From the NCBI RefSeq assembly GCF_024298765.1, contig NZ_CP101210.1: a stretch of 64,000 bases of DNA; one strand, given 5' to 3'. Below are positions 1 to 25,120 of the stretch, in pieces (the first letter of the stretch is position 1; each line of letters starts with the position of its first letter). The notes beneath the pieces were generated by a model that was not told where the DNA came from, ran no database searches, and saw nothing but the letters and a program-made list of their open reading frames with translations. The DNA is from Escherichia coli. GTDB lineage: Bacteria; Pseudomonadota; Gammaproteobacteria; Enterobacterales; Enterobacteriaceae. The position numbers were made by a program, and so were the translations under genes.

Positions 1-260
1 TCAATTATGAGGCTTTTAATTTAGGTACTGGTCAAGGTTATTCTGTTTTAGAGATTGTAAAAATGTTTGAGATAGTCACTAAAAAGAGTATACCTTTTGC
101 TATTTGTAATAGACGTGAGGGGGATGTTGCTGAGTCATGGGCGTCTGCTGATTTGGCACATGAAAAGCTTTCCTGGAAAGCGGAAAAAAAATTGAAAGAA
201 ATGATCGAAGATGTATGGCGTTGGCAAACAAAAAATCCAAATGGATATAAAAAATAATTT
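1..260 (+). CDS. UDP-sugar 4-epimerase (GalE/Gne-like), 3' partial; gene starts upstream of window
   Basis: C-terminal translation ...AESWASADLAHEKLSWKAEKKLKEMIEDVWRWQTKNPNGYKK closely parallels the C-terminus of the complete epimerase at 12838-13857; stop at 258-260. Confidence 0.7.
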
Positions 261-275
261 TTGGAATTTTGATAT

Positions 276-1292
276 ATGAAAAATGTTGGTTTTATTGTTA
301 CAAAATCAGAAATTGGTGGTGCACAAACATGGGTAAATGAAATATCTAACCTTATTAAAGAGGAATGTAATATATTTCTTATTACATCTGAAGAAGGATG
401 GCTCACACATAAAGATGTCTTTGCTGGAGTTTTTGTCATACCAGGTATTAAAAAATATTTTGACTTCCTTACATTGTTTAAATTGAGAAAAATTTTAAAA
501 GAAAATAATATTTCAACATTAATAGCAAGTTCTGCTAATGCCGGAGTTTATGCTAGGTTAGTTCGATTACTAGTCGACTTTAAATGTATTTATGTTTCGC
601 ATGGATGGTCTTGTTTATATAATGGTGGTCGACTAAAATCAATTTTTTGTATTGTGGAGAAATACCTTTCTTTATTAACTGATGTTATATGGTGTGTTTC
701 CAAAAGTGATGAAAAAAAAGCAATTGAGAAAATTGGTATAAAAGAAACAAAGATAATCACAGTATCGAATTCAGTGCCTCAGATGCCAAGATGTAATAAT
801 AAACCACTCCAGTATAAAGTTCTGTTTGTTGGTAGGTTAACACACCCTAAGCGCCCCGAATTGTTAGCGAATGTAATATCGAAAAAGCCCCAGTATAGCC
901 TCCATGTCGTAGGAGGGGGGGAAAGGTTAGAATCATTGAAGAAACAATTCAGTGAATGTGAAAATATTCATTTTATGGGTGAGGTCAATAATTTTTATAA
1001 CTATCATGAGTATGATTTATTTTCACTGATATCCGATAGTGAAGGTTTGCCTATGTCAGGCCTTGAGGCTCACACAGCTGCAATACCACTCCTTTTAAGT
1101 GATGTGGGCGGATGTTTTGAATTAATTGAGGGTAATGGGGTACTTGTGGAAAATACTGAAGACGACATTGGATATAAATTGGATAAAATATTCGATGACT
1201 ATGAAAATTATCGGGAACAGGCAATTCGTGCCTCCGGAAAATTTGTTATCGAGAACTATGCTTCAGCATATAAAAGCATTATTTTAGGTTGA
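276..1292 (+). CDS. glycosyltransferase, GT4-like (group 1)
   Basis: 338 aa; C-terminal EGLPMSGLEAHTAAIPLL...DVGG resembles the GT4 E-x7-E region; low GC typical of O-antigen genes. Confidence 0.65.
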   Translation: MKNVGFIVTKSEIGGAQTWVNEISNLIKEECNIFLITSEEGWLTHKDVFAGVFVIPGIKKYFDFLTLFKLRKILKENNISTLIASSANAGVYARLVRLLVDFKCIYVSHGWSCLYNGGRLKSIFCIVEKYLSLLTDVIWCVSKSDEKKAIEKIGIKETKIITVSNSVPQMPRCNNKPLQYKVLFVGRLTHPKRPELLANVISKKPQYSLHVVGGGERLESLKKQFSECENIHFMGEVNNFYNYHEYDLFSLISDSEGLPMSGLEAHTAAIPLLLSDVGGCFELIEGNGVLVENTEDDIGYKLDKIFDDYENYREQAIRASGKFVIENYASAYKSIILG

Positions 1293-1318
1293 GTATTTTT
1301 TAGAACAGGAAATGTAAA

Positions 1319-2440
1319 ATGGCTAAAGTCGCTCTCATTACTGGCATAACCGGACAAGACGGTTCTTACCTGGCAGAGTTTCTGCTGGAAAAAGGTTACG
1401 AGGTGCATGGTATTAAGCGTCGTGCATCGTCATTCAACACCGAGCGCGTGGATCACATTTATCAGGATCCGCACACCTGCAACCCGAAATTCCATCTGCA
1501 TTATGGCGACCTGAGTGATACCTCCAACCTGACGCGCATTTTGTGTGAAGTGCAGCCGGATGAAGTGTACAACCTTGGCGCAATGAGTCACGTTGCGGTC
1601 TCTTTTGAGTCACCGGAATATACCGCAGACGTTGATGCGATGGGTACGCTGCGCCTGCTCGAGGCGATCCGCTTCCTCGGTCTGGAAAAGAAAACCCGTT
1701 TCTATCAGGCTTCCACTTCTGAACTGTACGGTCTGGTGCAGGAGATTCCGCAGAAAGAGACCACGCCGTTCTACCCACGCTCTCCGTATGCAGTCGCCAA
1801 ACTGTACGCCTACTGGATCACCGTTAACTACCGCGAATCCTACGGCATGTACGCCTGTAACGGTATTCTCTTTAACCATGAATCCCCGCGCCGCGGCGAA
1901 ACCTTCGTTACCCGCAAAATCACCCGCGCAATCGCCAACATCGCACAGGGGCTGGAGTCGTGCCTGTACCTCGGCAATATGGATTCCCTGCGTGACTGGG
2001 GCCACGCCAAAGACTACGTAAAAATGCAGTGGATGATGCTGCAACAGGAACAGCCGGAAGATTTCGTCATCGCTACCGGCGTTCAGTATTCCGTGCGTCA
2101 GTTCGTGGAAATGGCGGCAGAGCGAGTCGGAATCAAACTGCGTTTTGAAGGCGCAGGTGTAGATGAGAAAGGGATAGTGGTTTCTGTTAATGGTGAGGAT
2201 GCTCCAGCAGTTAAACCTGGAGATGTAATCGTTAAGGTTGACCCGCGTTACTTCCGTCCGGCTGAAGTTGAAACACTGCTCGGCGACCCGACCAAAGCGC
2301 ACGAAAAACTGGGCTGGAAACCGGAAATCACCCTCAGAGAGATGGTGTCTGAAATGGTGGCTAATGACCTCGAAGCGGCGAAAAAACACTCTCTGCTGAA
2401 ATCTCACGGCTACGACGTGGCGATCGCGCTGGAGTCATAA
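1319..2440 (+). CDS. gmd: GDP-mannose 4,6-dehydratase
   Basis: 373 aa; N-terminal Rossmann motif [25 protein letters not shown]; conserved short-chain dehydratase core; high GC. Confidence 0.95.
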
Positions 2441-2442
2441 GC

Positions 2443-3408
2443 ATGAGTAAACAACGCATTTTTATCGCTGGCCATCGTGGGATGGTCGGTTCTGCCATCA
2501 GGCGGCAGCTCAAACAGCGCGGTGATGTGGAACTGGTATTACGCACCCGCGACGAGCTGAACCTGCTGGACAGCCGCGCGGTGCATGATTTCTTTGCCAG
2601 CGAACGCATTGACCAGGTCTATCTGGCGGCGGCGAAAGTGGGCGGCATTGTTGCCAACAACACCTATCCGGCGGATTTCATCTACCAGAACATGATGATT
2701 GAGAGCAACATCATTCACGCCGCGCATCAGAACGACGTGAACAAACTGCTGTTTCTCGGATCGTCCTGTATCTACCCGAAACTGGCAAAACAGCCGATGG
2801 CAGAAAGCGAGTTATTGCAGGGCACGCTGGAGCCGACCAACGAGCCTTACGCCATTGCCAAAATCGCCGGGATCAAACTGTGCGAATCTTACAACCGCCA
2901 GTATGGACGCGATTACCGCTCAGTCATGCCGACCAACCTGTACGGGCCGCACGACAACTTCCACCCGAGTAACTCGCACGTGATCCCTGCATTGCTGCGT
3001 CGCTTCCACGAGGCGACGGCACAGAATGCGCCGGACGTGGTGGTGTGGGGCAGCGGTACACCGATGCGCGAATTTCTGCACGTTGATGATATGGCAGCGG
3101 CGAGCATTCATGTGATGGAGCTGGCGCACGAAGTCTGGCAGGAGAACACCCGGCCGATGCTGTCGCACATTAACGTCGGCACGGGCGTTGACTGCACTAT
3201 CCGTGAGCTGGCGCAAACCATCGCCAAAGTGGTGGGTTACAAAGGTCGGGTGGTTTTTGATGCCAGCAAACCGGATGGTACGCCGCGCAAACTGCTGGAT
3301 GTGACGCGCCTGCATCAGCTTGGCTGGTATCACGAAATCTCACTGGAAGCGGGGCTTGCCAGCACTTACCTGTGGTTCCTTGAGAATCAAGACCGCTTTC
3401 GGGGGTAA
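2443..3408 (+). CDS. fcl: GDP-L-fucose synthase (GDP-4-keto-6-deoxymannose epimerase/reductase)
   Basis: 321 aa; [17 protein letters not shown](P)-binding motif; immediately downstream of gmd. Confidence 0.95.
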
Positions 3409-3911
3409 TGATGTTTTTACGTCAGGAAGACTTTGCCACGGTAGTGCGCTCCACCCCGCTTGTCTCCCTCGACTTTATTGTTGAGAACAGTCGCGGCGAG
3501 TTTCTGCTTGGCAAAAGAACCAACCGCCCGGCGCAGGGTTACTGGTTTGTGCCGGGAGGGCGCGTGCAGAAAGACGAAACGCTGGAAGCCGCATTTGAGC
3601 GGCTGACGCTTGCGGAACTGGGGTTGCGTCTGCCGATAACAGCAGGCCAGTTTTACGGTGTCTGGCAGCACTTTTATGACGATAACTTCTCCGGCTCGGA
3701 TTTCACCACTCACTATGTGGTGCTCGGTTTTCGCATCAGAGTAGCGGAAGAAAAGCTGTTACTGCCGGATGAGCAGCATGACGATTACCGCTGGCTGACG
3801 CCGGACGCGTTGCTCGCCAGTGACAATGTTCACGCTAACAGCCGAGCTTATTTTAATCATGATCCAAGAGCTGTTATTGGTTTAGATAAAAAGGATGTCA
3901 AAAATGTCTGA
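3408..3911 (+). CDS. gmm: GDP-mannose mannosyl hydrolase (Nudix)
   Basis: 167-aa ORF (probable start at second Met, 3411); position after fcl matches the gmd-fcl-gmm order. Confidence 0.85.
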
Positions 3912-5352
3912 TGTACCGTTGATTGCTGTTGTAATGGCTGGTGGTACGGGTAGCCGTCTTTGGCCCCTCTCAAGAGAGCACTATCCGAAGCAATTTCTGC
4001 AATTATCAGGTGAGAATACTTTATTACAGTCAACCTTATTACGACTATCCCCGCTTTCTTGCGAAACTCCATTAGTAATAACAAATGAGCAACATCGCTT
4101 TGTGGTTGCAGAACAATTACGTCAAATTGATCAGTTAAGAGATAATATTATTCTTGAGCCATGTGGAAGAAATACGGCTCCCGCCATAGCTCTTTCAGCA
4201 TTTACAGCTTTGAAGCGTAATGAACAACAGGATCCTATTTTGTTGATTCTCGCAGCTGACCATATTATAAGCAAAGCGGATGTTTTTTGTGACGCTATTC
4301 AAAAATCGAAAACTGTAGCTGAACAGGGGAATATTGTAACCTTTGGGATTATACCTGAATATGCGGAAACAGGTTATGGTTATATAAAAAAAGGAGATCC
4401 TTTTAAAATTTTACCAAATATTACTGATGATAAGTTTTATCATGTCCAACAATTTATTGAAAAACCTAACCATTCGACGGCAGAAGAGTATGTTTCCACA
4501 GGAGAATATCTCTGGAATAGTGGAATGTTTATGTTTAAAGCATCAGTATATTTAGAGGAATTGAAAAAGCACAGGCCTGATATATACGAAATCTGTGAGC
4601 AGACAGCTTCATTATCCTATAACGATCTTGATTTCATACGATTGCCTAAACATATTTTCCAAGATTGTCCGTCGGAATCAATTGATTTTGCGGTTATGGA
4701 AAAAACAAAAAATTGCATTGTTCGTCCAGTAGACATCGGGTGGAGTGATGTAGGCTCTTGGCATTCTTTGTGGGATATTAGTGATAAAACGCAGGATGGA
4801 GATGTCTGTAAAGGTGATATTCTAACTTATAACACTAAAAACAATTATATATATTGTGAATCAGCCCTAGTGGCTGCTGTAGGTGTAGAAGATATAGTTA
4901 TTGTTCAAACAAAAGATGCTATTCTCGTGTCCAAAAAAACTGAGGTTCAGGATGTAAAAAAAATAGTAGAAATGCTTAAGGAACATGAGCGCTCAGAGTA
5001 TATATCGCATCGAGAGGAGTTTCGGCCTTGGGGAAAATTTGATGCGATAGATCAGGGAGAACGATATAAAGTTAAAAAGATAGTTGTGAAACCCGGCGAA
5101 GGACTATCCTTACGAATGCACCATCATCGTTCTGAGCATTGGATTGTTCTTTCCGGCACAGCAAAAGTAACTTTAAACGATAAAACAGTATTGCTTGCTG
5201 CAAATGAATCAATCTACATTCCTCTAGGAGCAACGTATAGTCTTGAAAATCCAGGAATAATCCCTCTGAATCTTATTGAGGTTAGTTCAGGCGATTATTT
5301 AGGTGAGGATGATATTGTACGGCAAAAAGAACGCTACAGAATAGATGACTAA
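3895..5352 (+). CDS. manC: mannose-1-phosphate guanylyltransferase
   Basis: 485-aa ORF; N-terminal [17 protein letters not shown] nucleotidyltransferase motif; C-terminal cupin-like region; exact start uncertain (3895 or 3904). Confidence 0.9.
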
Positions 5353-5355
5353 TAT

Positions 5356-6735
5356 ATGAAAAAATTAACCTGCTTTAAAGCCTATGATATTCGCGGGAAA
5401 TTAGGTGAAGAACTGAATGAAGATATCGCCTGGCGCATTGGTCGCGCCTATGGCGAATTTCTCAAACCGAAAACCATTGTGTTAGGCGGTGATGTCCGCC
5501 TCACCAGCGAAACCTTAAAACTGGCGCTGGCAAAAGGTTTGCAGGATGCGGGCGTCGATGTGCTGGATATTGGTATGTCCGGCACCGAAGAGATCTATTT
5601 CGCCACGTTCCATCTCGGCGTGGATGGCGGCATTGAAGTTACCGCCAGTCATAATCCGATGGATTACAACGGCATGAAACTGGTGCGCGAAGGGGCTCGC
5701 CCGATCAGCGGCGATACCGGACTGCGCGATGTCCAGCGTCTGGCAGAAGCCAACGACTTTCCTCCCGTTGATGAAACCAAACGCGGTCGCTATCAGCAAA
5801 TCAACCTGCGTGACGCTTACGTTGATCACCTGTTCGGTTATATCAGTGTCAAAAACCTTACGCCGCTCAAGCTGGTGATTAACTCCGGGAACGGCGCGGC
5901 GGGTCCGGTGGTGGACGCCATTGAAGCCCGCTTTAAAGCCCTCGGCGCACCGGTGGAATTAATCAAAGTACACAACACGCCGGACGGCAATTTCCCCAAC
6001 GGTATTCCTAACCCGTTGCTGCCGGAATGCCGCGACGACACCCGTCATGCGGTCATCAAACACGGCGCGGATATGGGCATTGCCTTTGATGGCGATTTTG
6101 ACCGCTGTTTCCTGTTTGACGAAAAAGGGCAGTTTATCGAGGGCTACTACATTGTCGGCTTGCTGGCACAAGCGTTCCTCGAAAAAAATCCCGGCGCGAA
6201 GATCATCCACGATCCACGTCTCTCCTGGAACACCGTTGATGTGGTGACTGCCGCAGGCGGCACCCCGGTAATGTCGAAAACCGGACACGCCTTTATTAAA
6301 GAACGGATGCGCAAGGAAGACGCCATCTACGGTGGCGAAATGAGCGCCCACCATTACTTCCGTGATTTTGCTTACTGCGACAGCGGCATGATCCCGTGGC
6401 TGCTGGTCGCCGAACTGGTGTGTCTGAAAGGAAAAACGCTGGGCGAACTGGTGCGCGACCGGATGGCAGCATTTCCGGCAAGCGGTGAGATCAACAGCAA
6501 ACTGGCGGACCCCGTTGAGGCGATTAACCGCGTGGAACAGCATTTTAGCCGTGAGGCGCTGGCGGTGGATCGCACCGATGGCATCAGTATGACCTTTGCC
6601 GACTGGCGCTTTAACCTGCGCTCCTCCAACACCGAACCGGTGGTGCGCCTGAATGTGGAATCGCGCGGTAATATAGCATTAATGAATGAACAGGTTGAAT
6701 TTATTACAAAATTTTTAAACGGTGATGGTTTATGA
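5356..6735 (+). CDS. manB: phosphomannomutase
   Basis: 459 aa; phosphohexomutase active-site region TASHNP; follows manC. Confidence 0.9.
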
Positions 6736-7289
6736 GAATATTAAAAATTATTATAAGTGTATTGTTGTTTATAAAAAAGAAAAGAAAAAAAATACCGGAC
6801 TCAGCAATAATAAACTTAACAAGTCATGTGGATAAACATTCAGTAATTGGAAAGTGTTGTTATATAGGGAAAAATGTATATATAACTAAAAGTATCATTG
6901 GGAATTACACATCTATTGCAAATAATGTCTCAATTGGTCAAGGTGAACATAAGGTTGATGCAGTTAGTACAAGTTCGATGTTCTACGATAATGAATTCGA
7001 AGATTTAACACAAAACGATTGTATTATAGGTAATGATGTGTGGCTCGGTACAGGAGTTACTGTATTACGAGGGGTAAGAATTGGTGATGGTGCTATTATT
7101 GGTGCTAATGCCGTTGTCACAAAAAATATTCCAGATTATTGTATTGCGGTAGGAGTACCTGCGAAAGTAATCAAAAGAAGATTACCAGTAAATGTTACTG
7201 AAAAAATAAAAGAGACTAAATGGTGGAATGATGAATATGAAGTGGCGAAGGATAAAATTATTTGCTTAACAAATGAATTAAAGTTATGA
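6732..7289 (+). CDS. hexapeptide-repeat acetyltransferase (putative O-acetyltransferase)
   Basis: 185 aa; left-handed beta-helix repeats [31 protein letters not shown]; start overlaps manB stop. Confidence 0.75.
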
Positions 7290-8728
7290 ACAAAAAAGAA
7301 ATAATTATCTTGCTTATAGCCAGAATTCTACAGATTCTCATTAGTTTATTCACAATGAGATTGATGACAACGATTTTAAGCAATGAGCAAATGGGGGAGT
7401 ATTATATTTTTTTAGCAATCTATATGTTGGCATCATTGGGTATAATTAATCCAATAGGACAATATGTGAATCGCAACACTTATTTATGGTGGAGAGAGGG
7501 AGTACTAACCCAATATATTGATCGATATATTAATTTTGTTTTGTGTTTTTCGCTTATTTATGTGATTTTGTATGGACTTGGTGAATGTTTGTTTAAAGGA
7601 ATAAATACACCATTTTGGATGTTATTCTGTTATTTATATATAGTATGTTTATCTCTAAACCAATTTCTATTACATACTTTAAATATCTTAAATTTTAAGA
7701 TAGTATTTTCCATTATGACGTTGATGACTTCTGTATTAAGTTTATCAGGGGCATATTTATTTATTGAATATAGCATAGCTAAACAAACTGTTAGTATATA
7801 TTACTGGGTTGCAGGAATCATAATTGGCAATTTTATTTCTTTATGTATATGCGTTGTATATCTGAGATGTAGAAATACGTTCCAAAAATCAATTCCTAAA
7901 TCTATCAATGTAAGCATAAAAGAAGTTTTTAATTTTTGCTGTCCAATTATGATAACAACTTTGTTCATTTGGTTTCAAAGCTCTGGATATCGATTTGCTG
8001 TCGAGCAAATGTTTGGCTTAAAGTTTTTAGGTATACTAGCTGTATGTTTTGCTGTGTCAGGGCAAATAATGTCAGTGATTGAGTCTTTAGTGACACAGAT
8101 ATTTCAACCAACATTATTTAAGCATATGGATAATGTCAAAAATAGAAAGCAACATCTAGATTTTTATATTAATGAAAATATAGCAATTTATGCTAGTGTA
8201 TTATTTTTTTGTACTTTCTTTATGCGCGAAATATTTTTGGTTTTAGTTGACAATAAATATCTTCCTTACTTCTATATAGGTATAATAGCTTTATGGAGTG
8301 AATTTTTTAGGATATCAACCAATACTTTGTCTTTAGTGTTTTTTTGCGAAAAGAAAATGAAGGTGGGAATTTTTCCTTATTTAATTGGCTCATTAAGTCT
8401 GGCTTTTTCGATCGTCTTGTTCAGGTTGTTAAATGTAAATTTGGGTATTTTAATAGCTTTTGCTATTGGGATTGCACAATTGGCCTCCTTTATCGTTTGC
8501 TTAATTACGGTAAAAAAAATCTCTTATTTTAAAATAAATTCCATCTTCTTAATGAAGAGGATAATAATAGTACTACCTTCTGTGTTAATTGCCCATTGCA
8601 TTCCTAAATTTGAAATGATTAATGCTGTCCATTTTATTATCATTTTCGGTGTCGGTTTATTTTACTTAATCTCTTTAGTTACTTCTTTTATGTTTATTAA
8701 ACAACCAGGAGGTGTTTATGGAAGTTAA
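7286..8728 (+). CDS. wzx: O-unit flippase
   Basis: 480 aa, highly hydrophobic multi-span protein, very AT-rich; position in O-antigen cluster. Confidence 0.8.
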   Translation: MNKKEIIILLIARILQILISLFTMRLMTTILSNEQMGEYYIFLAIYMLASLGIINPIGQYVNRNTYLWWREGVLTQYIDRYINFVLCFSLIYVILYGLGECLFKGINTPFWMLFCYLYIVCLSLNQFLLHTLNILNFKIVFSIMTLMTSVLSLSGAYLFIEYSIAKQTVSIYYWVAGIIIGNFISLCICVVYLRCRNTFQKSIPKSINVSIKEVFNFCCPIMITTLFIWFQSSGYRFAVEQMFGLKFLGILAVCFAVSGQIMSVIESLVTQIFQPTLFKHMDNVKNRKQHLDFYINENIAIYASVLFFCTFFMREIFLVLVDNKYLPYFYIGIIALWSEFFRISTNTLSLVFFCEKKMKVGIFPYLIGSLSLAFSIVLFRLLNVNLGILIAFAIGIAQLASFIVCLITVKKISYFKINSIFLMKRIIIVLPSVLIAHCIPKFEMINAVHFIIIFGVGLFYLISLVTSFMFIKQPGGVYGS

Positions 8729-9569
8729 AATTATTGGGGGACTTGGCAATCAGATGTTTCAGTATGCAACTGCATTTGCTATTGCAAAAAGAACTCATCA
8801 AAATTTGACTGTTGATATATCTGATGCAGTAAAATATAAAACTCATCCATTAAGATTAGTTGAATTATCTTGTAGTTCAGAATTTGTAAAAAAAGCATGG
8901 CCATTTGAAAAATACTTATTTTCCGAAAAAATCCCACATTTCATGAAAAAAGAAATGTTCAGAAAGCATTACGTTGAGAAAAGTTTAGAGTATGATCCAG
9001 ATATTGATACTAAAAGTATAAATAAAAAAATCGTCGGTTATTTTCAAACTGAAAAATATTTTAAGGAATTTAGGCATGAGTTGATAAAGGAATTTCAACC
9101 TAAAACTAAGTTTAATAGTTATCAAAATGAATTGCTTAATTTAATTAAAGAAAATGATACTTGTTCATTGCATATTAGAAGAGGTGATTATGTTTCCAGT
9201 AAAATAGCAAATGAAACTCATGGTACATGTAGTGAAAAATATTTTGAACGTGCCATTGATTATTTGATGAATAAAGGTGTTATTAATAACAAAACCCTTC
9301 TCTTCATTTTTTCTGATGATATAAAGTGGTGCAGGGAAAATATATTTTTTAATAATCAAATATGTTTTGTTCAAGGTGATGCTTATCATGTTGAATTAGA
9401 TATGTTGCTTATGAGTAAATGTAAAAATAATATAATTTCAAATAGTTCTTTCAGTTGGTGGGCTGCTTGGTTAAATGAAAATAAAAATAAAACAGTAATT
9501 GCTCCGAGTAAATGGTTTAAGAAAGATATTAAACATGATATTATTCCCGAATCGTGGGTAAAATTATGA
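8712..9569 (+). CDS. alpha-1,2-fucosyltransferase (GT11 family)
   Basis: 285 aa; N-terminal IIGGLGNQMFQYATAFAIAKR and HIRRGDY motif characteristic of GT11 fucosyltransferases. Confidence 0.8.
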   Translation: MFMEVKIIGGLGNQMFQYATAFAIAKRTHQNLTVDISDAVKYKTHPLRLVELSCSSEFVKKAWPFEKYLFSEKIPHFMKKEMFRKHYVEKSLEYDPDIDTKSINKKIVGYFQTEKYFKEFRHELIKEFQPKTKFNSYQNELLNLIKENDTCSLHIRRGDYVSSKIANETHGTCSEKYFERAIDYLMNKGVINNKTLLFIFSDDIKWCRENIFFNNQICFVQGDAYHVELDMLLMSKCKNNIISNSSFSWWAAWLNENKNKTVIAPSKWFKKDIKHDIIPESWVKL

Positions 9570-10432
9570 TGGAAGATACAAAAGAATTAATAACAGTAAT
9601 AATGCCTGTTTATAATGCGGAAAAATACATATATGAATCTATAAAAAGTATTTTGGTGCAGTCATATTCTAATTTTGAGTTCATCATTATTAATGATGGC
9701 TCAAAAGATTCTTCTGGAAAAATTATTGAAAACTTTCTCGATGATACGAGGATACGATATATAAATCGTGAAAATAAAGGTTTGGTCTTCACTCTGAATG
9801 AAGCTATTTCGTTATCAAGAGGAAATTATATTGCTCGAATGGATGCTGATGATATTTCACATCCCCTACGATTAGAAAAGCAACTAAATTTTCTACTAGA
9901 AAATCCAGATATAGCCGTAGTTGGGTGTTCTTCTTTTATTATTGACCAAAATTCTAAGGTTATAAATACGCGAAAACCACCTTTGACACCTTTAGTAAAT
10001 AAAGCATTGCTATTTTTTGGCCCAACATTAACTCATCCATCAGTGATGTTTAATAAAATACTACTTGGAGATCAGCTTTACTACAGTGATAAATATCTTC
10101 ATGTTGAAGATTATGACTTGTGGTTGAGGTTAATTAATCAATACAAAATAGCTAATATCAAAGATGTTCTTTTTTACTATCGAATTAATGAGTCAGGTGT
10201 TTCACAGACTAATTTATTTGAACAAAAAATTAATGCTGCTAAAGCATATAGTGAAATTAAATATGATGGTAAGTATAAAGACTTACTGGAAAAGTTAGAA
10301 GTCATACACCTGAGACATGAAATGGAGAAAAGTAAGGTCTTTCAGGCCGTATTATATATATTATTAAAGTATGAACATGATTCATTATTATTTTTAAAAT
10401 TAGGATATATATTACGATGGTTAATAAAATAA
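9554..10432 (+). CDS. glycosyltransferase family 2
   Basis: 292 aa; ITVIMPVYNAEKYI...IIINDGSKD and ARMDADD (DxD) motifs. Confidence 0.8.
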   Translation: MGKIMMEDTKELITVIMPVYNAEKYIYESIKSILVQSYSNFEFIIINDGSKDSSGKIIENFLDDTRIRYINRENKGLVFTLNEAISLSRGNYIARMDADDISHPLRLEKQLNFLLENPDIAVVGCSSFIIDQNSKVINTRKPPLTPLVNKALLFFGPTLTHPSVMFNKILLGDQLYYSDKYLHVEDYDLWLRLINQYKIANIKDVLFYYRINESGVSQTNLFEQKINAAKAYSEIKYDGKYKDLLEKLEVIHLRHEMEKSKVFQAVLYILLKYEHDSLLFLKLGYILRWLIK

Positions 10433-11316
10433 AAATAGCACTAATAAGTACAGAAAAAGCTAATCTTCCTGAAATTGAAGCCTATAAGGAGTATTTTTCG
10501 GAGCCATTTGATGTCTCTGTTGTTAATAAAAATGATGATTTAAGTTGTTATGATGTTTTATGGTACTTTATGGGGTTTAAAGGTAATAAAATAAACTCTA
10601 AACAGTTCTTGATTCATGAGTTTTCCTCAATTTCAGTACCACCATTTCCAAAAATAAAAAACGTTATCAAGAAATTTATTTTGCCTAAACCTAATTTGAG
10701 GGTTTTTTTAAATAAATCAGTGCAACAACAATTCGATTTTAATGATAGAGTTCCTTTTTGTTACCGAGATATGGGCGTCAATTATAAACCAGTAGTTGAA
10801 AGAAATAATAAAAAATATGATATATTATATGTGGGGGCAATTACTGGTAGAAAACTAGATGATGCATTAAATTTGATTTTGTCATATAAATTAGATTGTA
10901 AAATCGCAATTCTTGGTAAAGTGCCAGAAAAGTTCAAAGAAAAATATAAAAATACTGATGTTATATTTCTTGGGCAAGTTCCTTATAATCGGGTAGCCAC
11001 CATTATTGCAGAATCTAACTTGTGTTTAAATTGGATTCCGAATATTTATCCATATAACATGCAGACATCAACAAAATTCTTAGAGTATCTGGCACAAAAT
11101 AAACAAATAATATCGAATAGCTACCCTTGGGTTGACTCTTATTGTCAACAGCATAATATTGACTATATTAATGTCAATGATTCCAATTCTATTCGACAAG
11201 CATTGAACTCAGTCATAATCCAAAAATCAACACATATCCCCCCAAGTTGGCGAGAGGTTATTATGAATAGCGGGATAGAGAATCACATTAAATCATATTT
11301 TGAGGTAACAAAATGA
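10417..11316 (+). CDS. putative glycosyltransferase
   Basis: 299 aa, low-GC ORF between GT2 gene and wzy, overlapping stop/start junctions; no strong motif identified. Confidence 0.45.
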   Translation: MVNKIKIALISTEKANLPEIEAYKEYFSEPFDVSVVNKNDDLSCYDVLWYFMGFKGNKINSKQFLIHEFSSISVPPFPKIKNVIKKFILPKPNLRVFLNKSVQQQFDFNDRVPFCYRDMGVNYKPVVERNNKKYDILYVGAITGRKLDDALNLILSYKLDCKIAILGKVPEKFKEKYKNTDVIFLGQVPYNRVATIIAESNLCLNWIPNIYPYNMQTSTKFLEYLAQNKQIISNSYPWVDSYCQQHNIDYINVNDSNSIRQALNSVIIQKSTHIPPSWREVIMNSGIENHIKSYFEVTK

Positions 11317-12356
11317 TTTCTTACGGAGTGCTATTTCTCTTCTCTTATATCAATGCTGTACTTCAGAAGAGAGTAACCGTAACGTTACTATTTTTTATAA
11401 TGATAATTGTTTCTTTCTTTAAATATAATATTGGATTTGATTGGGGGAATTATCATGAAATTTACCTTCAGCAAGGAGATGGCTTTTTTTTTAATGAACC
11501 CCTATTTTCTCTCTTAATTATTCTTTCCAATAAGGTTGCATTAGAATATAAATATTTTATATCAATGTGCTCATTAATTACACTGATTGTTTATTATTCT
11601 GGTATGCGGTGTTTTGCAAGAGATATAAAAGAGTTAGCTTTAGCATTAACTTATTTTGTTGTCTCTTATTGCTACTTTGAACACTTTAATATTATTCGAC
11701 AAGCTTTAGCAATCGCTTTATTCTTTTATAGTTGGAAATATATTATTGAGACTAACTTTATAATGTATAGCCTCTTTATTTTTTTTGCATCTATGATTCA
11801 TGCGGCGGCGGTTGTATTGCTCCCATTTTACTTTTTCCTTAGAATTGATAATTTTAAACCTGTATATTATGGTATAGTGGTCTTATTTATTATTATTGTT
11901 GTTAGATTCGATATTAACAGCATCCTTTTAAGTTCACTTAATTTATTTAAAAATTTCGATTTTGTAGCCAGGTATTTAGCAAATTCAACAGATTTGGCTG
12001 ACTTTGCATCAAAAAAATCTGATCTTGGATTAAGTAAGATATACCCAGCAATTATATTTGTTTTCTGTTGTTTTTGGGGAGGGATTAGGTTAGAGTCTCG
12101 AAGAGACTATGTTTTTTTTAATGCTGGCTTTATTGCAATAACTTTACTGCTCTTAAGCTATCAGGTTGATATTTTGTTTAGATTTTTCTCTTTTTTTGAG
12201 ACTTCATTTGTCTTGTTGTACTGCATTATTTTTTCTGGTTTTAATAAAAAAAGTAAAATTATACTGCATATGGTTAATTTAATTGTATATACGGTAATGA
12301 CATTTAACATGTTATCAGTAATGGGCTTGATTCCTTATGAATCATACATTTTCTAA
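11313..12356 (+). CDS. wzy: O-antigen polymerase
   Basis: 347 aa, very hydrophobic multi-span protein with extreme AT bias; no recognisable soluble domain. Confidence 0.65.
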   Translation: MISYGVLFLFSYINAVLQKRVTVTLLFFIMIIVSFFKYNIGFDWGNYHEIYLQQGDGFFFNEPLFSLLIILSNKVALEYKYFISMCSLITLIVYYSGMRCFARDIKELALALTYFVVSYCYFEHFNIIRQALAIALFFYSWKYIIETNFIMYSLFIFFASMIHAAAVVLLPFYFFLRIDNFKPVYYGIVVLFIIIVVRFDINSILLSSLNLFKNFDFVARYLANSTDLADFASKKSDLGLSKIYPAIIFVFCCFWGGIRLESRRDYVFFNAGFIAITLLLLSYQVDILFRFFSFFETSFVLLYCIIFSGFNKKSKIILHMVNLIVYTVMTFNMLSVMGLIPYESYIF

Positions 12357-12730
12357 TAAGCTTCCCTCAGTTGTTTGTTGTATAGTAATATTTTAATATC
12401 ATTGCAGTGTGTAATTATTGTCAATAAGCTAATTTCTGTTATTTGCATGATTAATTCAGTTTGCAATGCTTGATGTAAAAAGATAAAGTGCACCCGTTTA
12501 CACAATGTTTATTTTGGCATGTCAAGTATAAGTTCTAAATAATACGTTTGTAATGTTTAGCATGTAAACATAATAGTTAAATAATATTAAACATGCAACA
12601 TGCCATTTGTTATTCTAATAAAACATATGTGTTGTGTGAATTATTTAATGTGGAAAGTGGTTGCGTATTATAAATTGTTCATATTGACGTTTAAGTCTTT
12701 TATAACTCCATGCTTGCATGTTAAAAACAT

Positions 12731-12752
12731 TTCGCTATATATTCGCTATATA
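12731..12752. repeat. perfect tandem direct repeat 2 x 11 bp (ttcgctatata) within AT-rich intergenic region
   Basis: ttcgctatatattcgctatata read directly; lies in the 480-bp gene-free region 12357-12837. Confidence 0.9.
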
Positions 12753-12837
12753 TTATGGTAGGTGGTTTTTATCTAGGCAGATTTGTCTATTTAACTCTAA
12801 ATCTAAATCGCTTAAGAAAGTATGAGTAGGAGTATTT

Positions 12838-13857
12838 ATGGCTATTCTCGTTACAGGTGGTGCTGGTTATATTGCATCACATACTATACTGAGTTTGATA
12901 GAGCAGGGTAATGAAGTAATTATTATTGATAATTTATCAAATTCATATTATGATTCGTTATTGAAAATAAAAGAGATTACTGGATGTGATTGTCTTTTTT
13001 ATAAAGGAGATATCCTTGACAAAAAACTCTTGCTAAAAATATTTGATGAAAATAATATCACTGCTGTGATGCATTTTGCTGGTGCAAAGTCTGTAAGTGA
13101 ATCTGTTATCAGACCTTTGCAATACTATCGAAATAATGTCTCTGGCACTTTTTCTTTAGTTGAGGCAATGGAGGAGTCTGGTGTAGAAAATTTAATATTT
13201 AGCTCTTCAGCAACTGTCTATGGTGAGCCAAAGATTATTCCTGTGAATGAAAGTTGTGCTATAGGTGGTACTACAAATCCGTATGGAACGTCCAAGTTAT
13301 TTGTAGAGAACTTTTTGCGGGATTATTCTAAGGCATCCCCTAATTTTAAAACTATAGTATTAAGATATTTTAACCCTATCGGTGCTCACTCATCTGGAAA
13401 AATAGGTGAAGATCCTAACGGAATTCCGAATAACTTGATGCCCTTTATATGCCAGGTTGCTATCGGTAAACAAAAAACGCTCAAGATCTACGGAAATGAT
13501 TATCCTACTAAAGATGGTACTGGGATTCGCGATTATATTCATGTTATGGATCTTGCTGAAGGTCATGTTGCTGCATTAAATAATATTAATCAAGGAGCTA
13601 ATTATAGAGTTTACAACCTTGGAACAGGAATTGGATACTCTGTGTTGGAATTATTAGAAGCATTTCAGAAAGTTACAACTCGGAGAGTTCCCTATGTTTT
13701 TACTAAAAGGCGTTCAGGTGATATCGCTGAATGTTGGTCTGATCCTACCAAAGCGTATGAAGAATTAGGATGGAAAGCAAGGCGAGGGTTAGAAGATATG
13801 ATTCGTGATGCATGGAATTGGCAGCAAAAAAATCCAAATGGATTTAAGAAAGTTTAA
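12838..13857 (+). CDS. gne: UDP-GlcNAc/UDP-Glc 4-epimerase
   Basis: 339 aa; N-terminal ILVTGGAGYIASHT NAD-binding motif; C-terminus parallels the partial epimerase at window start. Confidence 0.9.
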   Translation: MAILVTGGAGYIASHTILSLIEQGNEVIIIDNLSNSYYDSLLKIKEITGCDCLFYKGDILDKKLLLKIFDENNITAVMHFAGAKSVSESVIRPLQYYRNNVSGTFSLVEAMEESGVENLIFSSSATVYGEPKIIPVNESCAIGGTTNPYGTSKLFVENFLRDYSKASPNFKTIVLRYFNPIGAHSSGKIGEDPNGIPNNLMPFICQVAIGKQKTLKIYGNDYPTKDGTGIRDYIHVMDLAEGHVAALNNINQGANYRVYNLGTGIGYSVLELLEAFQKVTTRRVPYVFTKRRSGDIAECWSDPTKAYEELGWKARRGLEDMIRDAWNWQQKNPNGFKKV

Positions 13858-13963
13858 TAAAAATGAAACGATATATTAAGTGTTAGCTTGTTTAATTAAT
13901 TTAAAGTTAATATTATTTACATTAATATGTAATGAAAGTGATATTCTATGACAGGAGTAAACA

Positions 13964-15370
13964 ATGTCAAAGCAACAGATCGGCGTAGTCGGTATGGCAG
14001 TGATGGGGCGCAACCTTGCGCTCAACATCGAAAGCCGTGGTTATACCGTCTCTATTTTCAACCGTTCCCGTGAAAAGACGGAAGAAGTGATTGCCGAAAA
14101 TCCAGGCAAGAAACTGGTTCCTTACTATACGGTGAAAGAGTTTGTTGAATCTCTGGAAACGCCTCGTCGCATCCTGTTAATGGTGAAAGCAGGTGCAGGC
14201 ACGGATGCTGCTATTGATTCCCTCAAGCCATACCTCGATAAAGGTGACATCATTATTGATGGTGGTAATACCTTCTTCCAGGATACCATTCGTCGTAACC
14301 GTGAGCTTTCTGCCGAAGGTTTTAACTTCATTGGTACCGGTGTCTCCGGTGGTGAAGAAGGCGCGCTGAAAGGTCCTTCCATCATGCCTGGTGGGCAGAA
14401 AGAAGCCTATGAACTGGTTGCACCGATCCTGACCAAAATCGCCGCCGTTGCTGAAGATGGCGAACCGTGCGTTACCTATATTGCTGCCGATGGCGCGGGT
14501 CACTATGTGAAGATGGTTCACAACGGTATTGAATACGGTGATATGCAACTGATTGCTGAAGCCTATTCTCTCCTGAAAGGCGGCCTGAATCTTTCTAACG
14601 AAGAACTGGCACAGACCTTTACCGAGTGGAATAACGGTGAACTGAGCAGCTACCTGATCGACATCACCAAAGACATCTTCACTAAAAAAGATGAAGACGG
14701 TAACTACCTGGTTGATGTGATCCTGGATGAAGCGGCTAACAAAGGTACCGGTAAATGGACCAGCCAGAGCGCGCTGGATCTCGGAGAACCGCTGTCGCTG
14801 ATTACCGAGTCTGTGTTTGCACGTTATATCTCTTCTCTGAAAGATCAGCGTGTTGCAGCGTCTAAAGTTCTCTCTGGTCCGCAAGCGCAGCCTGCTGGCG
14901 ACAAGGCTGAGTTCATCGAAAAAGTTCGTCGTGCTCTGTATCTGGGCAAAATCGTTTCTTACGCCCAAGGCTTCTCTCAGCTGCGTGCTGCGTCTGAAGA
15001 GTACAACTGGGATCTGAACTACGGCGAAATCGCGAAGATTTTCCGTGCTGGCTGCATCATCCGTGCGCAGTTCCTGCAGAAAATCACCGATGCTTATGCC
15101 GAAAATCCGCAGATCGCTAACCTGCTGCTGGCTCCGTACTTCAAGCAAATTGCCGATGACTACCAGCAGGCGCTGCGTGATGTCGTTGCTTATGCAGTAC
15201 AGAACGGTATCCCGGTTCCGACCTTCGCGGCTGCGGTTGCCTATTATGACAGCTACCGCGCCGCAGTTCTGCCTGCAAACCTGATCCAGGCACAGCGTGA
15301 CTATTTCGGTGCGCATACTTATAAGCGCATTGATAAAGAAGGTGTGTTCCATACTGAATGGCTGGATTAA
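13964..15370 (+). CDS. gnd: 6-phosphogluconate dehydrogenase, decarboxylating
   Basis: 468 aa; N-terminal [17 protein letters not shown]; high GC core-gene composition. Confidence 0.97.
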
Positions 15371-15398
15371 TCTGATTTAACCAACAATAAAATTGAGG

Positions 15399-15430
15399 CC
15401 CGGCGTATATTGCACCGGGCTTTTTTTTGC
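15399..15430 (+). terminator. rho-independent terminator downstream of gnd
   Basis: GC-rich hairpin (gcccggcg...caccgggc) followed by T8 run. Confidence 0.6.
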
Positions 15431-15609
15431 CAAATATCTTATAGACTAAATTTCACTGCTTAATATTAACTTAATAAATATCAGCTATTCTTATAAAGAA
15501 AATCTGAATTGTTTTTCGTTGCGTTGACCATCTGACAACGTAGCGTTAAAACTTTTAACTCTTATCAGGATGCTAAAAACATCATGATTCACAGTTAAGT
15601 TAATTCTGA

Positions 15610-16785
<1,176 letters not shown>

Positions 16786-16793
16786 CATCCTGT

Positions 16794-16826
16794 TATCAGG
16801 GCGATTTTCGCCCTGATTGTCTTTTG
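16794..16826 (+). terminator. putative terminator downstream of ugd
   Basis: inverted repeat atcagggcgattttcgccctgat followed by T-rich tract. Confidence 0.5.
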
Positions 16827-16930
16827 TTACCTCCGCAATAATTCATTATTTTTATCACTTATCCTATAGCATTCACTAGGATTATCGCTAAACTATGCGG
16901 ACTTGGAAATTTCCGTCAGTTAGGGTAATG

Positions 16931-17908
16931 ATGAGAGTAGAAAATAATAATGTTTCTGGGCAAAACCATGACCCGGAACAGATTGATTTGATTGATTTAC
17001 TAGTGCAGTTGTGGCGTGGCAAGATGACAATCATCATTTCCGTCATTGTGGCTATTGCCCTGGCTATTGGATATTTGGCAGTAGCGAAGGAGAAATGGAC
17101 GTCAACAGCAATTATCACTCAGCCCGACGTGGGGCAAATTGCTGGCTATAACAATGCCATGAATGTTATCTATGGTCAGGCTGCACCGAAAGTATCGGAT
17201 TTACAGGAGACGTTAATTGGTCGCTTCAGTTCTGCATTCTCTGCATTAGCAGAAACGCTGGATAATCAGGAAGAACCAGAAAAACTTACCATCGAACCTT
17301 CTGTTAAGAACCAGCAATTACCATTGACAGTTTCTTATGTTGGGCAAACTGCAGAGGGAACACAAATGAAGTTGGCCCAATACATTCAGCAAGTTGATGA
17401 TAAAGTGAATCAAGAGCTAGAAAAGGATCTCAAGGACAACATTGCTCTGGGACGGAAAAACTTGCAGGACTCTTTAAGAACTCAGGAAGTAGTCGCGCAA
17501 GAGCAGAAAGATCTGCGTATCCTTCAGATTCAGGAAGCGTTGCAGTATGCGAATCAGGCGCAGGTGACAAAGCCACAGGTTCAGCAGACTGAAGATGTGA
17601 CACAAGATACGTTGTTCCTTTTGGGGAGCGAAGCGCTGGAGTCGATGATTAAGCATGAGGCGACCCGTCCGTTGGTGTTCTCACCAAACTACTATCAGAC
17701 TCGTCAAAACCTGCTGGATATCGAAAGCTTAAAAGTTGATGATCTTGATATTCATGCTTACCGTTATGTAATGAAACCGACGTTACCTATTCGTCGCGAT
17801 AGTCCGAAAAAGGCAATCACCTTGATTCTGGCGGTGCTACTGGGCGGCATGGTTGGCGCGGGGATTGTGCTGGGGCGTAATGCTCTGCGTAATTACAACG
17901 CGAAATAA
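16931..17908 (+). CDS. wzzB: O-antigen chain-length determinant
   Basis: MRVENNNVSGQNHDPEQIDLIDL... N-terminus, central coiled-coil region and C-terminal TM segment; start trimmed from ORF 16895. Confidence 0.93.
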   Translation: MRVENNNVSGQNHDPEQIDLIDLLVQLWRGKMTIIISVIVAIALAIGYLAVAKEKWTSTAIITQPDVGQIAGYNNAMNVIYGQAAPKVSDLQETLIGRFSSAFSALAETLDNQEEPEKLTIEPSVKNQQLPLTVSYVGQTAEGTQMKLAQYIQQVDDKVNQELEKDLKDNIALGRKNLQDSLRTQEVVAQEQKDLRILQIQEALQYANQAQVTKPQVQQTEDVTQDTLFLLGSEALESMIKHEATRPLVFSPNYYQTRQNLLDIESLKVDDLDIHAYRYVMKPTLPIRRDSPKKAITLILAVLLGGMVGAGIVLGRNALRNYNAK

Positions 17909-17925
17909 TCTTTGCAGTTTTAAAG

Positions 17926-17965
17926 AAAACGGGCAGAGTGGTGACACCTTGCCCGTTTTTTTTTG
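17926..17965 (+). terminator. putative terminator downstream of wzzB
   Basis: hairpin aaacgggca...tgcccgtt followed by T9 run. Confidence 0.5.
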
Positions 17966-18005
17966 CCGGATGCGACTACAACATCGCATCCGGTCAGTCC
18001 GCAAC

Positions 18006-18610
18006 TCACTGATGCCGTTTACGCAGGTTCTCAATCACCGTTGTTAAATCCAGATCCTGATCCTGCAACAATACCAGCAGGTGATACATCAAATCAGATG
18101 CCTCGTTAGTTAGTTCAAAGCGGTCATGTACCGTTGCTGCCAGTGCGGTTTCCACCCCTTCTTCGCCCACTTTCTGCGCAATGCGTTTGGTGCCGCTGGC
18201 ATACAGTTTGGCGGTATAGGAAGTTTCCGGGTCGGCAGATTTGCGTGCGGCGAGCAGTTGTTCCAGTTGATACAGGAACAGCCATTGGTGAGCGGTGTCG
18301 CCGAAGCAGCCGCTGGTGCCTTTGTGGCAGGTTGGTCCGATAGGATTCGCCAGTACCAGTAGCGTGTCGTTGTCGCAATCCGGGACAATACTCACTACGT
18401 TGAGGAAATTGCCCGACATTTCGCCTTTGGTCCACAGCCGTTGTTTAGTGCGCGAGAAGAAGGTGACTTTGCCGCTTTCGATGGTTTTGTCTAAAGCTTC
18501 CGGGTTCATATAGCCCAGCATTAGCACTTCGCCGGATACCGCGTGTTGTACAATCACCGGCATAAGTCCGTCGGTTTTTTCCCAGTCCAGTTCGCGACGT
18601 TGTTGTTCTG

Positions 18611-20696: not shown

Positions 20697-21762
20697 TACA
20701 GCACTCCTTTCGACGAGGGCAGGGTGTCGCCTTCCACGCGGATGGCCTGGCGCAGGGTGCGACCAAAGGCTTTGAACAGGCTCTCTACACGGTGGTGATC
20801 GTTTTTACCTTTAGTTTTCAGGTGTAGCGTCACGCCCATGGTGTAAGAGAGCGAACGGAAGAAGTGCTCGATCATTTCGGTGCTGAGATCGCCCACGCGT
20901 TGGTAGGTAAACTCGGCTTTATATTCCAGGTGCGGGCGACCAGAGATATCCAGCGCGCAGCGGGCAAGGCATTCGTCCATCGGTAGCACAAAACCAAAGC
21001 GGCAAATACCGCGTTTGTCTCCGAGGGCGATTTTTAGCGCTTCGCCCAGCGCCAGGCCGGTATCTTCGACGGTGTGGTGATCGTCGATATAGAGGTCGCC
21101 TTTGACGTTGATTTCCATGCGGAAACCGCCGTGGGTGGCGATCTGATCCAGCATGTGATCAAAGAAGCCAACACCGGTGTTAATCTTGCTGCCACCTTCG
21201 CGATCCAGCCACACCTGGACGTCAATTTGCGTCTCTTTGGTGTTGCGCACTACATGGGCGTAACGGTCTCGTTTAGTGAGTTGCTCGCCAATCATCGGCC
21301 AGTTCAGGATTTCGCGGTCGTAGCGTAAACCATTAATGCCCATGTTTTCCGCCAGTTGAATGTCGGTCGCGCGATCGCCAATCACATAACTGTTAGCGCG
21401 ATCCATCGCTTGCTCAGCCAGATAACGCTCTACCAGTTTTACTTTCGGCTTACGGCAGTCGCACTCATCGGCGGGCAGGTGCGGACAAATCAGCACTTCA
21501 TCAAACTGCACGCCTTGCGAGGTGAAGATCTGCATCATCAGGTTGTGCGGGCCATCGAAATCCGCCTGCGGGAAACTTTGTGTTCCCAGACCATCCTGAT
21601 TAGTGATCATCACCAGCTTGTAGCCCGCTTTTTGCAGCTTCAGCAGCTGTGGGATCACGCCCGGTTCAAAGGCGAGTTTGTCAAAACGGTCCACCTGAAA
21701 ATCACTCGGCGGTTCGCTAATCAGGGTTCCATCGCGATCGATAAAAAGATACTTCTGACTCA

Positions 21763-21763
<1 letters not shown>
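20696..21763 (-). CDS. hisB: bifunctional histidinol-phosphatase / imidazoleglycerol-phosphate dehydratase
   Basis: 355 aa; [14 protein letters not shown]. Confidence 0.97.
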
Positions 21764-24134
<2,371 letters not shown>

Positions 24135-25084: not shown

Positions 25085-25120
25085 AATAAAAAAGCCCCCG
25101 GAAGGTGATCTTCCGGGGGC
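25085..25120 (-). terminator. his attenuator terminator hairpin
   Basis: gcccccggaag...cttccgggggc stem followed (minus strand) by U-run, between hisL and hisG. Confidence 0.85.

Follow-up and report, generated by a model that had tools for sequence, protein, structure and literature searches.

The window, a 64,000-nt stretch of the Escherichia coli contig NZ_CP101210.1, is 99.5 to 99.8% identical over positions 1 to 13900 to nine complete genomes with wzx/wzy annotated as the O128 family, including one O128:H27. By this identity it carries the O128-specific wzx and wzy that mark the cluster located between galF and gnd, with gnd, ugd, wzz, and the his operon after them, and on this sequence evidence it holds the E. 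coli O128 O-antigen gene cluster, O128ab-like. All five proteins of its GDP-L-fucose module score above their NCBIfam cut-offs: gmd (588.7 versus 415), fcl (549.9 versus 500), gmm (313.3 versus 146), manC (TIGR01479; 754.4 versus 373), and manB (CpsG subfamily; 1035 versus 801). Rfam and tRNA scans over 1319 to 6735 gave no match. The segments of the module and its neighbors are listed below, with "native" and "wca-derived" as the probable origins argued for in this study.

276–1292, + strand: GT4-family glycosyltransferase gene, putatively native low-GC, directly left of the mosaic; weak glycosyltransferase matches only
1319–1346, + strand: putative native gmd 5' end; 6 mismatches in 28 bp versus wca gmd
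1347–2120, + strand: probable wca-derived tract 1, within gmd; 97.5% identical to LHM10-1 wca gmd
2121–2236, + strand: probable native, unconverted gmd patch; 68% identical to wca gmd, low GC3
2237–3854, + strand: probable wca-derived tract 2; gmd 3' end, whole fcl (2443–3408), and gmm to 3854; GC 0.56
3855–3911, + strand: putative native low-GC gmm tail, holding the ribosome-binding region and the overlapping manC start
3895–5352, + strand: manC, native low-GC and probably never converted, with a GC-silent crossover inside
5356–6669, + strand: probable wca-derived tract 3, from the manB ATG to 66 bp before the stop; 96.0% identical to LHM10-1 cpsG
6670–6735, + strand: putative native low-GC manB tail; ~40% identical to the cpsG end
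6732–7289, + strand: hexapeptide-repeat O-acetyltransferase gene, putatively native low-GC, right of the mosaic; acetyltransferase family matches

The manC start at 3895 is the first in-frame start, and the PGAP annotation of strain LHM10-1 places it at 3904. The glycosyltransferase gene is shared at 96 to 100% with the O90/O127 and O86 clusters, and at the other end the manB stop overlaps (ATGA) the start of the O-acetyltransferase gene at 6732.

Base composition across the five genes is far from uniform, as an earlier note made from the letters alone had proposed. Sliding GC is 0.23 to 0.39 up to ~1300, 0.48 to 0.61 over 1300 to 3800, 0.32 to 0.42 over 4000 to 5400, 0.51 to 0.59 over 5400 to 6700, and 0.23 to 0.37 thereafter. 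By segment, GC and GC3 reach 0.539 and 0.647 in gmd (1347–2120), 0.566 and 0.699 in fcl, 0.548 and 0.631 in gmm (3408–3854), and 0.551 and 0.632 in manB (5356–6669); the published GC of wca genes, 55 to 56%, matches these blocks (PMC5359238). The corresponding values are 0.376 and 0.270 in manC (3912–5352), 0.316 and 0.158 in the gmm tail, 0.242 and 0.136 in the manB tail, and 0.335 and 0.248 in the upstream glycosyltransferase gene, and the GC of the O-acetyltransferase gene is 0.307. Pooled, GC3 is 805/1235 (0.65) in the GC-rich blocks versus 398/1566 (0.25) in the remainder, i.e., manC, the gene tails, and the flanking O-antigen genes (Fisher P = 7.6e-101). The gnd gene has a GC3 of 0.52. 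Both measures thus bear out the GC-rich gmd, fcl, and most of gmm and the AT-rich gmm 3' end and manC that the earlier note described. Its AT-rich manB end is also there, although it spans 66 bp (6670–6735) rather than about 80 bp, and gmd, GC-rich for the most part, contains an overlooked patch of 116 bp (2121–2236) with a GC of 0.457 and a GC3 of 0.28, versus 0.64 in the remaining gmd (P = 2e-5).

The window starts within the O-antigen cluster and is without wca genes, so the reference was the colanic-acid (wca) cluster of LHM10-1, a strain 99.8% identical to the window in its O128 cluster; the comparison of donor and recipient thus ran between close relatives, not inside the window strain's own genome. 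The elevated identity to colanic-acid paralogs anticipated from composition was found, with 97.5% for gmd 1347–2120, 97.3% for 2237–3854 (gmd end, fcl, gmm), and 96.0% between manB 5356–6669 and cpsG. In contrast, manC reaches just 59% identity with cpsB, and exact matches between the two extend to 11 bp at most. The gmm tail matches the end of wca gmm at 42% identity but O127 at 100% and O86 at 96.5%. Against wca, the block edges are resolved to a few bases, between blocks of 96 to 97.5% and remnants of 40 to 68% identity. The GC steps match these edges exactly, since the blocks lie inside the between-strain range of wca alleles (96 to 98%) and manC and the tails far below it. The junctions fall at 1346/1347, 3854/3855, 5355/5356, and 6669/6670, so that the switches previously placed near 3840, 5356, and 6660 are correct to ≤15 bp; that list stands for its three entries but was incomplete, missing the gmd patch and a crossover at 4059–4083 in manC. 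Among the sampled cpsG alleles, there was no exact donor for the window manB, the best non-O128 allele being 97.5% identical over the manB interior. In LHM10-1, the O-antigen copies are at least as close to the wca copies of other strains as to those of LHM10-1, which argues for episodic rather than continuous conversion.

Related clusters differ in where the blocks end. The manB tract stops at ~6470–6480 in O86, which keeps a low-GC manB 3' end of ~250 bp, at ~6630 in O90/O127, and at 6669 in O128. In O128ac, the left gmd junction lies ~14 bp earlier than in the window, and a low-GC gmd/fcl junction lost in the window type is retained (27 differences in 2401–2460). Window and O128ac differ at 2 positions in 1273 bp of manC and 0 in 520 bp downstream, versus 47 in 1075 bp of the manB interior (5356–6430); this divergent interior between near-identical flanks argues that manB was re-converted after the two lineages split. 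Strain 4012 is 85% identical to the window in the glycosyltransferase gene and 95 to 100% in gmd-gmm. Hence, in the manB interior, in strain 4012, and at the tract ends, converted blocks and native flanks have discordant histories. The manC crossover is silent in GC: the left side belongs with the O90/O127 module and the right side with the O128ac cluster, at 281 of 282 informative sites. A fully low-GC, unconverted gmd-fcl-gmm was found in none of the clusters sharing manC or the patch (O86, O90/O127, O128ac, strain 4012), all of which are converted.

The gmd patch is in frame and alters about 10 of 39 residues compared with wca Gmd. Its boundaries are unchanged across the O128ab, O128ac, O90/O127, O86, and strain-4012 clusters, between which the patch diverges by 13 to 18%, similar to the native glycosyltransferase gene and manC. 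At ≥80% identity it occurs, in any copy, in ~141 of 4792 genomes, and its carriers are only genomes with fucose-type O-antigen clusters. We rejected the idea of an ordinary wca polymorphism, as the standard wca sequence, ~74% identical to the query, is found in ~97% of genomes.

Exchange between the two loci is directly visible, as one recent conversion, within a genome of a relative, FHI_NMBU_11, rather than in the window strain. Over 632 bp (1616–2247), its wca gmd matches its O-antigen gmd at every position, where other genomes show 48 to 51 differences over 1640–2240, and its wca copy has the O-antigen patch. The patch is present in both gmd copies in 4 of the 11 genomes that have it. In one lineage, these sequences show a transfer that ran in reverse, from the O-antigen copy to wca. 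In every complete relative examined, the wca paralogs lie on the same chromosome in direct orientation, 18.4 to 19.7 kb apart; the window opens too late in the O-antigen cluster to include this upstream region. In strains E41 and OkiPb01675, wcaF runs straight into a hybrid gmd, with the O-antigen fcl next, and both crossovers lie between 2269/2275 and 2407/2457, a stretch of ~130 to 180 bp after the gmd patch. The joints show two natural deletions of ~18 kb attributable to crossover between both gmd copies, a frequency of 2 in 23 sequenced O128 genomes. The flanking galE/gne genes were rejected as a second recombining repeat pair (66% nucleotide and 55% protein identity). Judged from the related genomes, the exchange is recurrent and still happening.

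Altogether, it is very probable that four of the five fucose genes have been largely overwritten in place by the neighboring wca copies through recurrent homologous recombination. The recombination with the colanic-acid locus suggested by the earlier note is thus supported by the steps in wca identity and by recurrent exchange in related genomes. Its picture of junctions between an imported cluster and resident wca-type genes is refined in one respect, as native remnants point to overwriting in place rather than simple borrowing. We propose a model in which gmd-fcl-gmm-manC-manB would at the start have been low-GC, like the rest of the O128 cluster, with GC-rich paralogs of all five genes present as direct repeats in the wca cluster 18 to 20 kb upstream. 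Homologous recombination, probably RecA dependent and acting as nonreciprocal gene conversion, would then have put wca sequence in place of the O-antigen copies at 1347–2120, 2237–3854, and 5356–6669. The tracts would end where homology or selection ends, i.e., at the first 28 bp of gmd, the 116-bp gmd patch, the gmm tail holding the manC start, the manB ATG, and the manB tail overlapping the start of the next gene; we infer that selection on translational-coupling signals set these endpoints. By minimum-homology reasoning, manC presumably escaped because its exact matches to cpsB do not exceed 11 bp. Recurrent and occasionally reversed, this exchange removes all DNA between the repeats when it takes the form of a reciprocal crossover.

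The main alternative is that gmd-fcl-gmm and cpsG were duplicated into the cluster from wca at its assembly, with manC from elsewhere, and that low-GC versions never existed. The GC-rich blocks are indeed wca-like over nearly whole genes, and none of the clusters examined has a fully low-GC gmd-fcl-gmm. Nevertheless, the in-frame low-GC remnants at gene ends and inside gmd encode homologous residues, and wca intergenic or wcaI sequence was not brought along. The low-GC manB end of O86, the low-GC gmd/fcl junction of O128ac, and the native-like divergence of the patch between lineages also speak against such a capture, which we regard as improbable.

Still less probable is an origin without any wca exchange, either from an unrelated GC-rich donor or by amelioration or codon-usage selection on highly expressed genes. 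The GC and GC3 of the blocks do resemble those of E. coli core genes such as gnd (GC3 0.52), but nucleotide identity to wca alleles reaches 96 to 100%, synonymous sites included, and the block edges are sharp on the scale of a few bases. Together with the 632 bp of perfect paralog identity inside one genome, this effectively refutes such an origin. Short-read mapping between both loci is known to be unreliable (PMC8550085), and wca reads collapsed into the O-antigen copies could give chimeric genes. This artefact is the least credible explanation of all, given that the mosaic recurs, with both loci present separately, in 22 complete genomes that are independent and cover ≥80% of the cluster, as well as in O90/O127 and O86 genomes, and given the private substitutions of the O-antigen copies.

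Beyond overwriting in place, there is a slim chance that the two-locus repeats are more than a passive by-product, with the patch kept by selection and the hotspot after it possibly adaptive. The boundaries of the patch have stayed fixed in five or more cluster lineages despite repeated homogenization of both flanks, and selection could hold it. Its selected role could be a specialization of the O-antigen Gmd (a surface segment with ~10 altered residues) or a barrier to recombination, and the stretch of perfect identity just after it could act as a hotspot giving irreversible loss of O antigen and colanic acid. If true, hotspot deletion would be a path, repeatedly taken and perhaps adaptive, to rough, acapsular variants.

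The phenomenon itself is already known from O157 manB, O14 strains, and Lenski's lines, to which the window adds a well-resolved example; current understanding is unchanged by the O128 mosaic. In O157, the colanic-acid cpsG copy took the place of the O-antigen manB (Samuel et al. 2004, cited in and extended by PMC3158064). Within one genome, this manB and cpsG are >95% identical, and the excess divergence of manB among strains was ascribed to gene conversion with the wca paralog (PMC3158064). The window resembles O157 in the probable conversion by a wca paralog, and its complete relatives share the chromosomal arrangement. It differs in that gmd, fcl, and gmm were probably converted too and in that the remnants and the gmd patch make the tracts mappable, and the O128-type module differs further in the reverse transfer to wca in one lineage. 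In Salmonella enterica, Jensen and Reeves reportedly described in Microbiology in 2001 GC-rich colanic-acid-like and low-GC classes of O-antigen GDP-mannose genes, among them colanic-acid-like manB and manC, with chimeric genes at the junctions. That case concerns another species, and the window manC is not of the colanic-acid type. In O14, the O-antigen cluster was deleted by recombination between its two manB genes (Jensen and Reeves 2004, cited in PMC7685785), and in Lenski's long-term evolution experiment manB and cpsG recombined seven times, each event contributing to a deletion of the manB-cpsG region (PMC4173774). As in these systems, direct wca/O-antigen repeats recombine in the relatives studied here and the intervening DNA is lost, but in E41 and OkiPb01675 the crossover took place in gmd instead of manB/cpsG. 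According to Feng et al. 2005, as summarized in PMC7685785, the first seven genes of O86 and O90/O127 (gne, GT, gmd, fcl, gmm, manC, manB) are >96% identical, and these clusters diversified by replacement of the downstream part through recombination. The window shares this module only up to 4059–4083 in manC, and a statement linking O128 to the O86/O90/O127 5' module was not found in the literature searched.

The mosaic explains the discordance of GC and phylogeny inside the O128 O-antigen cluster and ties the evolution of O-antigen sugar-pathway genes to that of the colanic-acid locus. It makes gmd, fcl, gmm, and manB unsafe for molecular serotyping of O128/O86/O127, SNP typing, and short-read mapping. 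Moreover, the direct repeats leave the region prone to deletions of ~18 kb, through which both O antigen and colanic acid should be lost.

The region 1-13900 corresponds to the E. coli O128 O-antigen gene cluster, matching nine complete genomes with O128-family wzx/wzy annotation over its full length at 99.5-99.8% identity, one of them labelled O128:H27. As the window starts inside this cluster, at the 3' end of the upstream galE/gne, it contains no wca genes. The five GDP-fucose pathway genes all scored above the curated NCBIfam cut-offs and, with the gene that follows the cluster, are arranged as below:

1319-2440, gmd
2443-3408, fcl
3408/3411-3911, gmm
3895/3904-5352, manC
5356-6735, manB
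13964-15370, gnd, then ugd, wzz and the his operon, strands as expected

The two galE-family genes flanking the O128 cluster share only 66% nucleotide identity, and a very AT-rich non-coding gap of 481 bp (12357-12837, GC 0.28) separates wzy from the downstream galE/gne. Further along, a CP4-44-like island occupies ~37000-64000, downstream of sbcB-dacD-sbmC-yeeA, as inferred from an annotated genome with 99.7% identity. It carries cbtA/cbeA, yeeS/yeeT, antirestriction, dynamin-family, GTPase, patatin-like and RdcB-family genes, degraded IS66 and ISL3 elements, and a carbohydrate kinase/amidotransferase/DMT transporter/phosphotriesterase block. No tRNA gene was found in the whole 64-kb window, and Rfam searches returned two RNA elements:

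25086-25209, minus strand, His_leader, 131.7 bits
27948-28022, plus strand, STnc240, an enterobacterial sRNA, 68.2 bits

In 200-bp windows, GC content was ~0.3-0.39 before 1300, rose to 0.48-0.61 over gmd, fcl and the greater part of gmm, and was 0.32-0.42 in manC and 0.51-0.59 in manB, before falling to 0.23 within 100 bp of 6670. Third-position GC (GC3) followed the same blocks, at 0.62-0.70 in the GC-rich ones and only 0.14-0.28 in manC, the flanking genes and the tails of gmm and manB (pooled, 805/1235 versus 398/1566; Fisher P = 7.6e-101). The GC mosaic proposed in the earlier note is thus borne out, its three switch points (3840, 5356 and 6660) being accurate to ~15 bp. The note had also proposed recombination with the colanic-acid locus, which we examined by aligning the window to the wca cluster of LHM10-1, the closest complete relative, in place of the window strain's own wca.

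Identity of window segments to colanic-acid paralogs of LHM10-1
gmd, 1347-2120: 97.5% to wca gmd
gmd patch, 2121-2236: 68% to wca gmd
gmd end, fcl and gmm, 2237-3854: 97.3% to wca gmd-fcl-gmm
gmm tail, 3855-3911: 42% to the wca gmm end
manC: 59% to cpsB
manB, 5356-6669: 96.0% to cpsG
manB tail, 6670-6735: ~40% to the cpsG end

This block-wise identity means that the steps in GC are steps in identity to the colanic-acid genes, and the 96-97.5% of the GC-rich blocks against 59% in manC supports the proposed recombination. The alignment places the junctions exactly at 1346/1347, 3854/3855, 5355/5356 (the manB ATG) and 6669/6670. Alleles of wca from different strains share 96-98% identity, and that of the blocks to wca is no lower. 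The O-antigen copies of LHM10-1 are no closer to its own wca than to that of other strains. For wca gmd, fcl, gmm, cpsB and cpsG, a GC of 55-56% has been published, in agreement with the GC-rich blocks (PMC5359238). An exact donor allele for the manB interior was not found, the best non-O128 match being 97.5%.

The best-supported reading of these sequences is that O-antigen genes were overwritten by wca sequence, rather than borrowed from wca. The stretches unlike wca preserve the reading frame, code for homologous residues and share the low GC3 of the native cluster. These putative native remnants comprise 28 bp at the start of gmd, the 116-bp gmd patch (2121-2236; GC3 0.28, ~10 of 39 residues changed), the final 57 bp of gmm, which include the overlapping manC start, and the final 66 bp of manB, a gene with a stop codon that overlaps the ATG of the one following it. 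That the patch is a normal wca polymorphism was considered and rejected: a copy with at least 80% identity occurs in only ~141 of the 4792 genomes with a match, and the others carry the standard wca sequence, ~74% identical to the patch.

The 5' module (galE, GT4, gmd, fcl, gmm, manC, manB) recurs in several other clusters:

O90/O127 cluster, strain EcPF16
O86 cluster, strain 47258
second O128 type, labelled O128ac, strain AW1.7
a further cluster, strain 4012

All four have a wca-like gmd-fcl-gmm and the gmd patch with identical boundaries. The strain 4012 cluster (positions 6134-18008 of its own locus, L011) is of the fucose type with galE, GT, gmd, fcl and gmm; IS and retron-type reverse-transcriptase fragments lie where manC and manB would be expected, GDP-mannose presumably being supplied by cpsB and cpsG. 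The end of the wca-like manB varies, from ~6470-6480 in O86 to ~6630 in O90/O127 and 6669 in O128. In O128ac, the left junction lies ~14 bp earlier than in the window, and the gmd/fcl junction is still low-GC, differing from wca 27 times in 2401-2460; the window type no longer has this low-GC junction. Between the window and O128ac, we counted 2 differences in the 1273 bp of the manC core, 47 in the 1075 bp of the manB interior (5356-6430) and 0 in the next 520 bp. As the manB interior diverged while its flanks are near-identical, manB must have been overwritten a further time, from another cpsG allele, after the two O128 lineages last shared this arm. Strain BUCT2930 (H133), of O128ac type by its left end, is another manB mosaic, with an interior 99.0% identical to the window type, compared with ~95.6% in other O128ac strains. 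A further crossover, silent in GC, lies in manC, where the window equals the O90/O127 module left of 4059 (100%) and O128ac right of 4083 (100%), a breakpoint backed by 281 of 282 informative sites. The window's O128 variant is therefore a recombinant of two low-GC clusters.

Exchange was also visible within single genomes. Strain FHI_NMBU_11, of O128ac type, has an O-antigen gmd identical to its own wca gmd over 632 bp (1616-2247; copies at 3987-5108 and 21693-22817 of its locus, L005), and in five other genomes a comparison of the two copies over 1640-2240 gives 48-51 differences. Both copies are of wca type in the left part of the tract, hence a transfer of wca sequence to the O-antigen gmd; on the right both hold the O-antigen patch, hence a transfer from the O-antigen cluster to wca. 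The wca gmd of this strain is thus a case of reverse conversion, into a housekeeping-like locus. Its patch variant occurs in 11 genomes, 4 of which carry it at both loci; these four, FHI_NMBU_11 and three other large-genome strains with the O-antigen-type patch in the colanic-acid gmd, all have genomes of 5.3-5.5 Mb and may represent one lineage.

Two of the 23 O128 genomes, E41 (window-type cluster; L006 11427-14593) and OkiPb01675 (O128ac type; L012 5421-8585, both in locus coordinates), carry independent natural deletions of ~18 kb by gmd x gmd crossover. In both, wcaF directly abuts a hybrid wca/O-antigen gmd followed by O-antigen-type fcl, gmm, manC and manB, and both have lost galF, the first glycosyltransferase and the remainder of wca. 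On the evidence of informative sites, each crossover maps between window-equivalent positions 2269/2275 and 2407/2457, directly after the gmd patch, in one of the longest perfect-identity stretches between the paralogs.

Altogether, the mechanism best supported is homologous recombination that recurs between paralogous direct repeats lying 18-20 kb from each other. Non-reciprocal conversions from wca to the O-antigen cluster make up most events; some are conversions in the opposite direction, and some are crossovers with deletion. The pattern of identity, the varying tract ends, the identical copies within one genome and the deletions are all demonstrated here, and the exchange is probably RecA dependent. 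Homologous recombination in E. coli has minimum homology requirements. The longest exact match between manC and cpsB is 11 bp, which would leave manC without a foothold for recombination and probably spared it through this homology threshold. Selection on overlapping start signals could explain why tracts end before gene ends.

Exchange between colanic-acid and O-antigen loci is an established kind of event. In Salmonella, Jensen and Reeves (2001) reportedly found manB/manC genes that were chimeric or colanic-acid-like, and a 2003 paper on the O128 cluster probably gave GC gene by gene. Replacement of the O157 manB by the colanic-acid gene, and its variation by gene conversion, are reported in PMC3158064, and PMC7685785 describes both the loss of the O14 type strain's O-antigen cluster by recombination between its two manB genes and the 5' module common to O86, O90 and O127. 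In the long-term evolution experiment, seven rearrangements arose by recombination of manB with cpsG, its 96%-identical counterpart, and the manB-cpsG region was lost in 10 populations (PMC4173774). All five genes were noted in both loci, with few SNPs, in Salmonella O13 (PMC8550085). Four points may be previously undescribed: the persistence of the gmd patch, conversion of wca by O-antigen sequence, the hotspot for gmd x gmd deletions, and the crossover in manC tying O128 to the O90/O127 module. These possibly new items are details inside this known framework.
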